Shown here piece after piece: positions 19,824 through 47,191 of a DNA stretch of 64,000 bases. Numbering within the stretch: the first letter of the stretch is position 1; the number at the start of each line of letters is the position of its first letter. Where the stretch lies: the NCBI RefSeq assembly GCF_001677475.2, contig NZ_CP015229.1. One strand, given 5' to 3'. The translations under genes were made by a program, and so were the position numbers. Source of the stretch: Escherichia coli (GTDB lineage Bacteria > Pseudomonadota > Gammaproteobacteria > Enterobacterales > Enterobacteriaceae). The notes beneath the pieces were generated by a model that saw only the letters and a list, made by a program, of their open reading frames with translations, made no database searches and was not told the origin of the DNA.

Positions 19824-21470
19824 TTATTTCACACAGCGGGTGCATTGTGTGAGTTGTATCTGCTGGAAGAAGTCATTTCCTTTATCATCCACAAGGATAA
19901 ACGCCGGGAAATCTTCCACTTCAATTTTCCAGATGGCTTCCATTCCCAGTTCCGGATATTCAACACATTCCAGGCTCTTAATACTTCCCTGCGCCAATAC
20001 AGCTGCCGGACCACCGATACTGCCGAGGTAGAAGCCGCCGTGTTTTTTACAAGCATCCGTCACCTGCTGGCTGCGGTTGCCTTTCGCCAGCATGATCATA
20101 CTTCCGCCCTGCGCTTGCAGTTGATCGACATAAGAATCCATCCGTCCGGCGGTCGTTGGGCCAAGAGAACCGGAGGCATAACCTTCCGGCGTTTTGGCCG
20201 GACCCGCGTAGTAAATCGGATGATCTTTAATGTACTGCGGCAGCCCTTCACCGTTATCCATCCGCTCTTTCAGTTTGGCGTGAGCAATATCACGACCAAC
20301 GATAATCGTGCCATTCAGCGATAAGCGTGTAGAAACGGGATACTGCGACAACTGTGCGAGGATCTCTTTCATCGGACGGTTAAGGTCAACGCGCACCGCT
20401 TCGCCTTCTCCCGCTTTGCGCAGCTCTTCCGGGATATATTTGCCTGGATTATGTTCCAGTTTTTCGATCCAGACACCCTGACGGTTGATCTTCGCTTTGA
20501 TATTACGGTCAGCAGAACAGGAGACACCCATACCGACCGGGCAGGATGCGCCGTGACGTGGCAGGCGAATCACGCGGATGTCGTGAGCGAAGTATTTACC
20601 ACCAAACTGCGCACCCAGACCAAGATTTTGCGCTTCGATCAGCAATTCTTTTTCCAGTTCCACATCGCGGAACGCCTGACCGTGCTCATTCCCTTCCGTT
20701 GGTAGTTCATCATAGTATTTCGCGGAAGCCAGTTTCACCGTTTTAAGGTTCGTTTCTGCAGAAGTTCCACCAATAACGAACGCAATATGATACGGAGGAC
20801 AGGCCGCCGTACCCAGAGTGCGCATCTTCTCAACCAGGTAATTTTTCAGTTTCCCCGGCGTTAGTAACGCTTTGGTTTCCTGATAGAGATACGTCTTGTT
20901 TGCCGAACCACCACCTTTGGCGATACAGAGGAATTTGTACTCGTCGCCATCAACGGCATAAAGATCGATCTGCGCTGGCAGATTGGTGCCGGTATTCACC
21001 TCTTTATACATATCCAGTGGCGCGTTTTGCGAGTAGCGCAGATTATCTTCGATATAAGTGTTATAGACACCGCGCGCCAGCGCCGCTTCATCACCACCAC
21101 CGGTCCATACACGCTGCCCTTTTTTACCAACAATAATCGCGGTGCCGGTATCCTGACAGGTCGGCAGAATGCCTTTCGCCGCGATGTCGGAGTTACGCAG
21201 GAATTGCAGCGCCACATATTTATCATTTTCGCTGGCTTCTGGGTCACGCAGAATGTCGGCCACCTGTTGTTGGTGAGCCGGACGCAGCATAAACGACGCA
21301 TCATGAAACGCCTGACGCGCCAACAAAGTTAACGCTTCGGGTGCGACTTTCAAAATCTCCTGCCCTTCAAATTCAGATACGCTAACGTGTTCGCTGGTTA
21401 GCAGGTAATACTCAGTATCATCTTTTTTGAGTGGAAAAGGAGCCTGATAATGAAAGGGTTTGTTTGACAT
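19824..21470 (-). CDS. fumA: Fumarate hydratase class I (Fe-S, aerobic)
   Basis: ORF track 548 aa. Confidence 0.95.
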
Positions 21471-29034: not shown

Positions 29035-29371
29035 TTAACCAATTCTGTGTTGCACACAGTTATCTGTGAGAAACCCATGGAAGAGAAATGGAAATAAAAA
29101 GAACTGACACCGCGATCAAAAAACCAAAAACTGCAATACCCACAGCGTGATATAGATCGCATTAATCTTTCAAACAGCGTTGACAGAAGCCATAAAATAA
29201 GCAATCGAACGTTCGTTCGAGCGTCTTGAGAACGATAAACTCTCATGACATATGGCTACGGTGAATATTTTTGGGGGAATTCTCCGATCCCGGGGAGATT
29301 GTATTTTGTACAGGGAAATTAAAGTATGAAACGCGGGCTCAGTTGTCACCAGCCCGCGGAAAGAGAGAGGA

Positions 29372-31069: not shown

Positions 31070-32233
<1,164 letters not shown>

Positions 32234-43747: not shown

Positions 43748-44443
43748 GTGAGCGAAATTAAAGACGTTATTGTTCAGGGGTTGTGGAAAAACAACTCTGC
43801 GCTGGTCCAGCTGCTCGGCCTCTGTCCGCTATTGGCGGTCACGTCCACTGCCACTAACGCTCTGGGTTTAGGACTTGCGACTACGCTGGTACTGACGCTG
43901 ACCAACTTGACCATTTCGACGCTGCGTCACTGGACGCCAGCCGAGATCCGCATTCCCATTTACGTGATGATCATCGCCTCGGTGGTCAGCGCTGTACAGA
44001 TGCTGATCAACGCCTACGCCTTTGGCCTGTATCAATCATTAGGGATTTTTATTCCGCTGATTGTCACTAACTGTATCGTTGTGGGCCGCGCTGAAGCCTT
44101 CGCCGCCAAAAAAGGTCCGGCGCTTTCGGCACTGGACGGCTTTTCAATTGGTATGGGCGCAACCTGCGCCATGTTCGTGCTGGGTTCACTACGCGAAATA
44201 ATCGGCAATGGCACGTTGTTTGACGGTGCAGATGCGCTGTTAGGTAGCTGGGCAAAAGTATTACGCGTGGAGATTTTCCACACCGACTCCCCTTTCCTGC
44301 TGGCGATGCTGCCACCAGGTGCATTTATTGGCCTGGGACTGATGCTGGCAGGGAAATACCTGATTGATGAAAGAATGAAAAAGCGCCGTACTGAAGCAGC
44401 TGCCGAACGTGCATTGCCAAACGGTGAAACAAGGAATGTCTGA
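43748..44443 (+). CDS. rsxE: Rsx complex subunit E
   Basis: ORF track 231 aa, GTG start. Confidence 0.95.
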
Positions 44444-45078
44444 TGAACAAAGCAAAACGCCTGGAGATCCTCACTCGCCTGCGTGAGAACAATCCTCATC
44501 CCACCACCGAGCTTAATTTCAGTTCGCCTTTTGAATTGCTGATTGCCGTACTGCTTTCCGCTCAGGCGACCGATGTCAGTGTTAATAAGGCGACGGCGAA
44601 ACTCTACCCGGTGGCTAATACACCTGCAGCGATGCTTGAACTGGGCGTCGAAGGGGTGAAAACCTATATCAAAACCATTGGGCTTTATAACAGCAAAGCA
44701 GAAAATATCATCAAAACCTGCCGTATCTTACTGGAACAGCATAATGGCGAGGTTCCGGAAGATCGTGCTGCGCTTGAAGCCCTGCCTGGTGTAGGTCGTA
44801 AAACAGCCAACGTCGTATTAAACACTGCATTCGGCTGGCCGACTATTGCTGTCGACACGCACATTTTCCGCGTTTGTAATCGTACTCAATTTGCGCCGGG
44901 GAAAAACGTCGAACAGGTAGAGGAAAAGCTACTGAAAGTGGTTCCGGCAGAGTTTAAAGTCGACTGCCACCATTGGTTGATCCTGCACGGGCGTTATACC
45001 TGTATTGCCCGCAAGCCTCGTTGTGGCTCTTGTATTATTGAAGATCTTTGTGAATACAAAGAGAAAGTTGACATCTGA
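44443..45078 (+). CDS. nth: Endonuclease III (DNA glycosylase/AP lyase, 4Fe-4S)
   Basis: ORF track 211 aa; C-x6-C-x2-C-x5-C cluster at C-terminus; start overlaps rsxE stop (ATGA). Confidence 0.95.
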   Translation: MNKAKRLEILTRLRENNPHPTTELNFSSPFELLIAVLLSAQATDVSVNKATAKLYPVANTPAAMLELGVEGVKTYIKTIGLYNSKAENIIKTCRILLEQHNGEVPEDRAALEALPGVGRKTANVVLNTAFGWPTIAVDTHIFRVCNRTQFAPGKNVEQVEEKLLKVVPAEFKVDCHHWLILHGRYTCIARKPRCGSCIIEDLCEYKEKVDI

Positions 45079-45249
45079 AGAAAAGGGGTAACACCGATTA
45101 CCCCATTGATAACCTTTCTTTATCCTCTTTTAAAACATCTTTTTAACGTCAATGATGCCATTGCTTAGCGTTATCATCAGGTAATCCGTTTGCGGATAAC
45201 CAAAAATGCAGGTTAATTGTTTTTTTAATAGCGAAATTTTCTATTCATT

Positions 45250-45265
45250 CGTGATCAAGATCACG
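45250..45265. promoter_or_regulatory. Palindrome CGTGATCAAGATCACG (CRP-like GTGA-N6-TCAC core, two GATC Dam sites) in dtpA upstream region
   Basis: Read from sequence; function inferred only. Confidence 0.35.
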
Positions 45266-45688
45266 ATGCTGTGGCAATGTAAAAACATTGCAAGAACTAG
45301 GTTAAAATCATTTAAATTTACACACGCAACAAATATTGACCTACAAAACATTACACTGGCTATTTTTCAGAAACTGGACTATCTCACTAGGAAAAACGCT
45401 AAATAGCAGAATATATCGCCGTTAAGCCATCATCCCCCTCTCAGGGTAGTGAAAAAATCTGCCGTTACGTTTTTTGAAAAATTTAACGCTGGATAACATT
45501 TCCCGGAATGGTTGAATTCCCCGCCTCAGTTATATGTAACAGATTATTACAAAGGACTTGTCTGAAAGTGCAAGATAGTGAACATTACCTGCCGTTTCCC
45601 CTCCCACTATAACAATTGCGCGTATGTTTTTTAGGCATAACGCGAGAAAGCACCCCCGTTAATATGGGATGTAAAAAAAGAGGTAAAA

Positions 45689-47191
45689 GTGTCCACTGCA
45701 AACCAAAAACCAACTGAAAGCGTCAGTTTGAACGCTTTCAAACAACCGAAGGCGTTCTATCTCATCTTCTCGATTGAGTTATGGGAACGTTTTGGTTATT
45801 ACGGCCTACAAGGAATTATGGCTGTTTACCTGGTTAAACAACTGGGTATGTCTGAAGCGGATTCAATCACCCTTTTCTCTTCCTTTAGTGCCCTGGTTTA
45901 TGGTCTGGTCGCTATCGGCGGCTGGTTAGGTGACAAGGTACTGGGTACTAAACGCGTAATTATGCTTGGCGCTATTGTGCTGGCGATTGGTTATGCTCTG
46001 GTTGCCTGGTCTGGTCACGACGCCGGTATCGTTTATATGGGTATGGCGGCTATTGCGGTCGGTAACGGCCTGTTTAAAGCTAACCCGTCTTCTCTGCTTT
46101 CTACATGCTATGAGAAAAACGACCCGCGTCTGGACGGTGCATTCACCATGTACTACATGTCCGTCAACATCGGCTCTTTCTTCTCTATGATCGCCACCCC
46201 GTGGCTGGCCGCGAAATACGGCTGGAGTGTTGCGTTTGCGTTGAGCGTTGTAGGCCTGCTGATCACTATCGTTAACTTCGCCTTCTGCCAACGCTGGGTT
46301 AAACAGTACGGTTCAAAACCAGACTTCGAGCCTATCAACTACCGTAACCTGCTGCTGACCATTATTGGTGTTGTGGCACTGATCGCTATCGCCACCTGGC
46401 TGCTGCACAATCAGGAAGTTGCGCGTATGGCGCTGGGCGTTGTTGCCTTTGGTATCGTGGTTATCTTCGGTAAAGAAGCCTTCGCGATGAAAGGTGCTGC
46501 GCGTCGTAAAATGATCGTTGCCTTCATCCTGATGCTCGAAGCCATTATCTTCTTCGTGCTGTACAGCCAGATGCCAACGTCACTGAACTTCTTTGCGATT
46601 CGTAACGTTGAACACACCATTCTGGGCCTGGCCGTAGAACCTGAGCAGTATCAGGCACTGAATCCGTTCTGGATCATCATTGGTAGCCCGATTCTGGCCG
46701 CTATCTATAACAAGATGGGCGATACCCTGCCGATGCCAACTAAGTTTGCAATCGGTATGGTGATGTGTTCTGGTGCGTTCCTGATTCTGCCGCTGGGTGC
46801 GAAATTCGCGTCTGACGCAGGTATCGTGTCTGTAAGCTGGCTGGTCGCGAGCTATGGCCTGCAGAGTATCGGGGAACTGATGATCTCTGGTCTGGGTCTG
46901 GCAATGGTTGCACAACTCGTTCCGCAGCGTCTGATGGGCTTCATTATGGGTAGCTGGTTCCTGACCACTGCCGGTGCAAACCTGATTGGTGGTTATGTTG
47001 CGGGTATGATGGCTGTGCCGGATAACGTTACCGATCCGCTGATGTCACTGGAAGTCTATGGTCGCGTATTCTTGCAGATTGGTGTCGCTACTGCCGTTAT
47101 TGCAGTACTGATGCTGCTCACCGCGCCGAAACTGCACCGCATGACGCAGGATGACGCTGCAGACAAAGCGGCGAAAGCTGCTGTAGCGTAA
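45689..47191 (+). CDS. dtpA: Proton-dependent di/tripeptide permease (POT family)
   Basis: ORF track 500 aa, GTG start. Confidence 0.95.

Follow-up and report, generated by a model that had tools for sequence, protein, structure and literature searches.

The DNA analysed here is a 64,000-nucleotide stretch of Escherichia coli, referred to below as the window, with all positions counted from its first letter. Within it, the last base of the gene nth is 45078 and the GTG start codon of dtpA begins at 45689, leaving a 610-bp spacer whose GC content is 37.0%, against 50.7% for the whole window. The spacer contains the palindrome CGTGATCAAGATCACG / cgtgatcaagatcacg at 45250-45265, together with two GATC sites (45253-45256 and 45259-45262) that are the only GATCs between the two genes. 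In these respects the locus is as described in the original prediction, which had been made from the sequence alone and had named a 610-bp AT-rich spacer with a palindrome and two GATCs. The inverted repeat that it reported is also real, but its arms are longer than the 7 bp given there: they are perfect over 8 bp (TCGTGATC/GATCACGA, 45249-45266) around a 2-bp AA centre. The same 16-mer is found in K-12 MG1655 at 1712330-1712345. The spacer was matched in 5422 of 5426 complete E. coli genomes with 95-100% identity, and in the RefSeq annotation of the matching genomes the gene order is rsxD-rsxG-rsxE-nth and dtpA-gstA, with no gene annotated in the spacer. The features of the region, with the basis of each in parentheses, are as follows.

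44443-45078, plus strand: nth (endonuclease III), last gene of rsxABCDGE-nth (open reading frame and RefSeq annotation)
45206-45406, plus strand: 66-codon open reading frame overlapping the CRP site, mechanical and not a gene (length, frame and start codon unconserved)
45209-45248, no strand: block left of the CRP site, with CAGGTTAAT, a run of seven T and TAGCGAAATTTTCTA at 45229-45243 (conservation profile and ortholog strings)
45250-45265, no strand: cAMP-CRP site, 16-mer CGTGA-TCAAGA-TCACG, with a 22-bp context at 45247-45268 and its centre at 45257.5 (matrix, published binding and conservation)
45253-45262, no strand: two Dam GATC sites within the CRP site (sequence)
45266-45292, no strand: block right of the CRP site, TGATAAC..ATGTTAA..TTG in most genera (conservation)
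45343-45501, no strand: upstream blocks at about 45343-72, 45377-90, 45403-21, 45448-60 and 45479-501 (no indels between them)
45529-45555, plus strand: promoter-proximal OmpR-type repeats GTTATATGTAACAGATTATTACAAAGG (near-invariant, just upstream of the -35 element)
45558-45593, plus strand: known dtpA core promoter region, with putative -35 TTGTCT at 45558-63, a 17-bp spacer and putative -10 AACATT at 45581-86
45689-47191, plus strand: dtpA (tppB, ydgR), proton-dependent di/tripeptide permease of 500 aa (open reading frame and RefSeq annotation of matching genomes)

CRP binding at the palindrome

A CRP matrix was trained on 39 other strong (high-affinity) CRP sites, whose median score is 16.9 bits. 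The palindrome scores 20.6 bits, which is the top of the 64-kb window, ahead of the runner-up in the uidR-uidA spacer (19.3 bits) and above the best score among 20 shuffles of the window (18.3 bits). Its two inverted TGTGA-type half-sites lie 6 bp apart, and it matches the ideal CRP site at 15 of 22 bases and at 8 of 10 half-site bases, with both the GTGA and the TCAC core perfect. The exact 16-mer with at most two mismatches is expected 0.07 times in the window. The bare core GTGA-N6-TCAC is not rare, being expected 0.72 times, found twice, and found at least twice in 13 of 100 shuffles; likewise, perfect inverted repeats with 8-bp arms number 25 in the window vs 6.7 in shuffles, and most of them are terminators. 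Thus palindromy by itself is not significant, and it is the matrix score, the conservation across genera and the published binding data that place the palindrome above chance. There is no second strong CRP site in the nth-dtpA spacer, where the next-best matrix score is 8.4 bits.

Several other matches were noted elsewhere in the window. At 29144-29163, AGCGTGATATAGATCGCATT ranks second in the matrix scan with 19.3 bits; it lies in the uidR-uidA spacer and presumably corresponds to the CRP site already known for the uidA promoter. A perfect 16-bp palindrome in the malI-malX spacer, GATAAAACGTTTTATC at 32207-32222, resembles a MalI operator, and 8 bp to its left is a weaker CRP-type match (32180-32199, 9.2 bits). 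Another CRP-type match, CATGTGATTAACAGCACATT at 300-319 (13.6 bits), lies just downstream of a 297-aa minus-strand open reading frame (347-1240), probably in the region upstream of mlc. The other occurrence of GTGA-N6-TCAC, CGTGAGCAATATCACG at 20279-20294, scores 11.9 bits and falls inside the coding sequence of a class I fumarate hydratase; given this location and score it is probably a chance match.

CRP binding has been published for the palindrome itself. Table 1 of a Footprint-seq preprint (Wang, Stringer and Wade, January 2026) lists ttCGTGAtcaagaTCACGatg with region centre 1712342 and gene dtpA, and gives an estimated Kd of about 2.1 nM for purified CRP in vitro. The study, in which a total of 1,217 regions were footprinted by CRP in vitro, places the dtpA site among 40 “novel CRP sites” that have a Kd of at most 10 nM and lie more than 500 bp from described sites. 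By genomic SELEX, tppB (the same gene as dtpA) was identified as one of 119 new CRP targets (Shimada et al. 2011). Furthermore, CRP ChIP-seq in V. cholerae showed in vivo binding next to a gene that is annotated as tppB, which we count as a physiological fit for CRP input to dtpA. CRP binding at the palindrome is experimentally established in vitro. With this footprint and the highest matrix score of the window, the palindrome is almost certainly a real cAMP-CRP binding site, and the CRP-like character suspected in the original prediction, which had proposed a matrix scan, is borne out.

The presence of a CRP binding site upstream of dtpA is therefore already known, and its discovery adds little; the regulatory effect on dtpA is still a proposal. 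What is added here is the analysis of conservation and fixed spacing, and the rejection of the leader, open reading frame and methylation readings of the locus. In the searchable supplements of Crp ChIP-exo, start-site, 3'-end and methylome studies, the nth-dtpA spacer has no entry, and the literature retrieved contains no in vivo CRP occupancy, crp-dependent change of dtpA or start-site map for the E. coli spacer. The “transcription_start_site” column in supplement S1 of PMC5957442 apparently gives the 3' end of transcription units, e.g., 5020 for thrLABC and 1710182 for rsxABCDGE-nth, the latter being where nth ends in U00096.2 coordinates.

Conservation of the site and its distance to the dtpA promoter

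Orthologous spacers were recovered together with DtpA from 80 enterobacterial species representatives. In 59 of the 80 species at least 8 of the 10 half-site bases are present at a common position, 435-440 bp ahead of the dtpA start, and 50 species have the exact GTGA-N6-TCAC core. Among the 59 orthologous sites, columns 2-5 are conserved in all 59 and columns 12-15 in 55-59, whereas the centre is free to vary (column 8, A22/G22/C9/T6; column 9, A27/C17/G8/T7). Constrained half-sites around a free centre are the signature of a dimeric operator. The genera with the site include Escherichia, Salmonella, Citrobacter, Klebsiella, Enterobacter, Trabulsiella, Lelliottia, Yokenella, Franconibacter, Siccibacter and Leclercia, and 5025 of 5423 complete E. 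coli genomes share the same 30-mer around it. In the other 21 of the 80 species, among them Kluyvera, most Kosakonia, Pseudocitrobacter and the C. freundii group, the site is lost or degraded and the flanking blocks are kept, so the site is dispensable in some lineages. One half-site is degraded between intact flanking blocks in Kluyvera (L021-L023, L027, L028, L035) and in the Citrobacter freundii group (L013, L015, L017), for example by TCAC becoming TCAT or GTGA becoming GCTGA. CRP input appears to have been lost several times independently among these lineages.

These patterns bear on the question of whether a strong CRP site could be without function, i.e., bound without any regulatory consequence. 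The number of regions bound by CRP in vitro (1,217) is far above the number of known regulated promoters, and no mapped promoter is near the site, which several lineages have lost. However, its eight core bases are invariant over more than 12 genera in which the spacer bases and most of the surroundings have diverged, its distance to the promoter is fixed (see below), and the 30-mer is retained across E. coli genomes, none of which is neutral behaviour. A functionless site is thus disfavoured by conservation, and as judged from these alignments it would be an improbable explanation.

The orthologs also bear on whether the palindrome could be an FNR site (TTGAT-N4-ATCAA), with which it shares a 14-bp geometry (gTGAT-CAAG-ATCAc). 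Binding of FNR would account for the anaerobic induction of tppB in Salmonella; that induction, however, is reportedly independent of fnr (oxrA). The base that tells the two kinds of site apart is G (GTGA) for CRP and T (TTGA) for FNR. It is G in both half-sites of all 59 orthologs, and it is CRP for which binding has been directly demonstrated, so that FNR can be given next to no credence here.

A conservation profile of the nth-dtpA spacer was built from 37 sequences. Conservation begins abruptly at 45209 and continues to dtpA as blocks of 12-30 bp separated by diverged but indel-free stretches. The block at 45209-45248 forms the upstream limit of conservation in the spacer, and the distance from CAGGTTAAT to the CRP core is 42 bp in 45 of 47 species. 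In the same block, TAGCGAAATTTTCTA (45229-45243) differs at one position from the Lrp SELEX consensus YAGHAWATTWTDCTR, read on the minus strand; it is the only such match in the window, with 0.53 expected by chance. Its resemblance to an Lrp site is a lead only. Salmonella tppB is reportedly leucine-responsive. On the right of the CRP site, the Escherichia version of the conserved block is a palindrome with 7-bp arms, GCAATGT-N4-ACATTGC (N4 = AAAA), at 45274-45291. Position 45273 is G in the window vs C in K-12. A sigma-54 reading of TGGCA...TTGCA at 45272-45292 was rejected for its wrong spacing and for the TGTCGCA that K-12 has instead. Closer to dtpA, the blocks are spaced 76, 55 and 41 bp apart without variation in 56-62 species; the rigidity seen at 45343-45555 is unusual for 370 bp of non-coding DNA without a conserved open reading frame or RNA fold.

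The dtpA promoter can be placed with the help of published mutations and fusions. A recurrent A-to-T mutation of long-term stationary-phase cultures, nth/dtpA (+503/-108), increases the level of dtpA mRNA about 23-fold and has been located “adjacent to the -10.” It corresponds to position 45581 of the window, 108 bp before the dtpA start codon, and by our reading of the sequence it would change the -10 element from AACATT to TACATT. The start site is accordingly predicted near 45586-45595, in a core promoter block that is invariant across orthologs. In published work, tppB/dtpA is a direct OmpR target that is activated at low and repressed at high OmpR, and a -201..+15 fusion keeps OmpR-dependent expression. 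The repeats at 45529-45555 resemble OmpR half-sites by eye and are candidate OmpR sites.

Relative to this OmpR-dependent promoter, the centre of the CRP site (45257.5) is at about -330. The CRP core and the -10 block are separated by 322 bp in 44 species and by 323 bp in six, whereas the total length of the nth-dtpA spacer varies among species from 570 to 641 bp; indels have thus accumulated toward nth. The mutation at 45581 and the OmpR control retained by the -201..+15 fusion indicate that the CRP site is part of the upstream DNA and not of the transcript. As that fusion lacks the site and still depends on OmpR, the promoter can function at its basal level without it.

The placement of the palindrome in a “long dtpA leader region,” as originally predicted, does not hold, for it is about 330 bp upstream of the known start and there is no conserved RNA structure. 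RNAalifold (20 genera, 432 columns) gave -9.4 kcal/mol with covariation at 2 of 24 pairs and no conserved fold on the upstream side of the promoter, and a long structured leader was rejected. The sole 5-pair hairpin with invariant G-C pairs is located about 30-45 nt before the dtpA start codon, inside the true leader. An Rfam scan of 44900-45800 with E up to 1 returned a chance snoRNA match only. The palindrome was also rejected as a hairpin or terminator, having a 7-bp stem, -6 kcal/mol, z = -2.4 and no T-run. The 66-codon open reading frame that overlaps the site had been called spurious, rightly so: it exists mechanically, but it is not conserved across relatives, being cut to 38 codons in the closest Escherichia species and missing from E. 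albertii, with unrelated frames at its place in other relatives, ATA instead of its ATG in most genera and no RefSeq annotation. All other frames in the spacer are likewise unconserved.

A position of about -330 is far outside the known range of CRP activation through contact with RNA polymerase, and distal CRP action is rare. The site is at none of the class I, II or III positions (-41.5, -61.5, -71.5, -82.5 and -92.5) relative to the dtpA promoter, and no conserved -10 element was found on either strand at a class I or class II distance from it. With this distance and no conserved -10, the class I/II contact of CRP with the alpha subunit is unavailable at dtpA.

The main rival to a distal role is that the site drives an unmapped CRP-dependent promoter nearby, either a second dtpA promoter (P2) with a leader of ~380 nt or a promoter for a leftward non-coding transcript that heads for the nth 3' end. 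High-affinity CRP sites in intergenic regions mostly act on a promoter no more than ~100 bp away, and the Footprint-seq preprint regards intergenic novel sites as probably regulatory. For a rightward transcript, E. coli has a -10-like TAAAAT at 45303-45308, but the stretch that contains it (45297-45342) is poorly conserved, and the long leader implied would be without conserved RNA structure. For a leftward transcript, Salmonella arizonae has TAGAAA-16-TATGAT on the minus strand, using a conserved ATAGAAA block, and E. coli has a terminator-like hairpin with TTTTCTT on the minus strand directly after the nth stop codon (45104 to 45085); against this, the sequence left of 45209 is unconserved and the E. 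coli hairpin was not seen in three other genera. With the candidate -10 elements, which are not conserved, CRP would be centred near -58 on the plus strand or near -48 on the minus strand and would miss the -41.5, -61.5 and -71.5 faces. Consensus scans found no sigma-70-like promoter pair on either strand of the E. coli spacer and none in Enterobacter, and the only match in Klebsiella is ~300 bp from the CRP site on the minus strand; among the Salmonella, Enterobacter and Klebsiella spacers no promoter and no terminator is shared. On balance, a promoter near the site seems unlikely, though it deserves more attention than the other alternatives. The GC-rich hairpin itself (45085-45104) has its T-run on the minus strand and not on the nth strand, and may either terminate transcription in both directions or mark where an unannotated leftward transcript ends.

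The GATC sites

Two GATCs are present inside the regulator site, at 45253 and 45259, as the original prediction had pointed out. Among the 59 orthologous CRP sites, 33 have both, 20 have one and six, E. albertii included, have none; the right-hand GATC is found in 52 and the left-hand one in 34. In the comparison set of 39 other strong CRP sites, a GATC (half-site followed by TC) occurs at 17 of 54 intact half-sites, and two GATCs occur in 2 of 39 sites. GATCs are therefore more frequent in the dtpA orthologs than the generic rate for CRP sites, a comparison confounded by the shared ancestry of the orthologs. The ideal CRP consensus TGTGATCTAGATCACA itself contains GATC, and positions 6-7 and 10-11 of the site also add to affinity. 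As GATC is the flank preferred by CRP, the two sites need no extra explanation.

Binding of CRP can affect Dam. In MG1655, GATCs in annotated CRP sites are less methylated on average than the genome median, which makes partial protection from Dam plausible while CRP is bound. CRP-dependent under-methylation, together with bistability, has been described at Salmonella loci such as nanA, and CRP blocks Dam at some GATCs. On this basis, CRP and Dam could compete at the two GATCs to produce a stable under- or hemimethylated state that feeds back on binding and causes cell-to-cell differences in dtpA expression. The presence of two GATCs within a protein-binding site, and their excess in orthologs over other strong sites, would fit such an epigenetic element. 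However, this excess is confounded as noted above, the GATC is already part of the consensus, and orthologs with intact half-sites retain one GATC in 20 of 59 cases and none in six. The palindrome locus is not named in the accessible E. coli methylome papers and their searchable supplements, and the text of the Salmonella under-methylation study makes no mention of tppB, dtpA or nth. We know of no demonstration that methylation alters CRP binding, and the Salmonella and MG1655 papers report none. The proposal of a methylation-sensitive regulator site consequently finds no support, and a true methylation-dependent switch at the palindrome is unlikely, with a heritable Dam-based element deserving very little weight. 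The two GATCs are most probably a by-product of the CRP consensus and not a control element, and may be partly shielded from Dam by bound CRP.

Proposed role and known systems

The explanation we favour, at a probability of roughly 0.55, is that the high-affinity CRP site forms the distal end of the dtpA regulatory region and provides an architectural CRP input. A mode without polymerase contact is proposed on the grounds that the distance to the promoter is locked at 322-323 bp, that the site is at the edge of the conserved blocks, and that no conserved -10 element exists at a class I or class II distance. A cAMP-CRP dimer would bind the palindrome at the distal edge of the conserved, indel-free blocks and would act without the usual direct contact with RNA polymerase. 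The CRP-induced bend of roughly 90 degrees could fold the upstream region into a nucleoprotein complex, in which the partners would be OmpR and at least one further factor on the flanking blocks, and the outcome would be a coupling of peptide uptake to carbon limitation. That the site is a functional input to dtpA at all seems reasonably probable, and about half of that probability belongs to an architectural or looping mode as opposed to an unmapped nearby promoter. The fixed spacing between CRP site and promoter could instead reflect constraints among other sites.

A bolder and quite improbable extension of the architectural reading would make 45209-45590 a ~370-bp spacing-locked, enhancer-like region, in which CRP bending and a factor at the Lrp-like site would bring distal DNA in a loop to the OmpR-dependent dtpA promoter and the twin GATCs would record CRP occupancy. 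If Dam did record the occupancy of CRP, peptide uptake would show heritable heterogeneity in starvation.

Carbon sensing by dtpA matters for starvation physiology, as its product is the main proton-driven di/tripeptide permease and promoter-up mutations of dtpA sweep repeatedly in long-term stationary-phase cultures. With nanomolar affinity, a distance of ~330 bp and a spacing fixed across genera, the dtpA CRP site is well suited to testing whether CRP can act independently of distance. The locus is of practical concern too. The nth-ydgR spacer (45079-45688) serves as the “terminus” landing pad, supposedly neutral, for genome-integrated promoter-reporter libraries. Conserved regulatory DNA takes up about 480 bp of this spacer, which also holds the 2-nM CRP site, so that an insertion may interfere with the control of dtpA or leave the reporter beside a strong bend induced by CRP.

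Compared with the canonical CRP operators (lac at -61.5, galP1 at -41.5), the dtpA site involves the same protein and the same 16-bp TGTGA-N6-TCACA geometry, and it shares with them a nanomolar affinity, flanks rich in A/T and the GATC inner flanks of the ideal consensus. It differs in that the outer T/A of the half-sites are C/G (CGTGA..TCACG), and in that the only promoter mapped is about 330 bp away, with no conserved -10 element at an activating distance on either strand. Like Salmonella nanA and dgoR, dtpA has GATC in or beside a CRP site, where bound CRP may hinder the access of Dam; unlike at those loci, the GATCs of dtpA are inconsistently conserved and no bistability is known for the gene.

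Other parallels are offered by distal or architectural CRP sites, namely that of papBA at about -215, which works with Lrp and Dam, and the CRP cluster of malEp-malKp, which works with MalT. In both, CRP is bound far upstream amid conserved protein-binding blocks, and bending or complex formation has been proposed. The Lrp-consensus-like block 6 bp from the dtpA CRP site is reminiscent of Lrp at papBA, although the regulatory GATCs of pap are in Lrp sites and those of dtpA in the CRP site. CRP action at papBA and malEp-malKp has been proven genetically and biochemically, whereas the dtpA site is known from binding only and its distance is larger (about 330 bp).

A distal element is also known at ompF, where the OmpR site F4 lies at about -380 to -350 and a loop is assisted by IHF. 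The distal element of dtpA, unlike that of ompF, binds CRP and not OmpR, no IHF site was found in its region, and looping is hypothetical. In other respects the two genes are alike. Both are OmpR-regulated genes of envelope or transport function, both have a long conserved upstream region with a far element at a fixed distance, and dtpA resembles ompF in being activated when OmpR is low and repressed when it is high.
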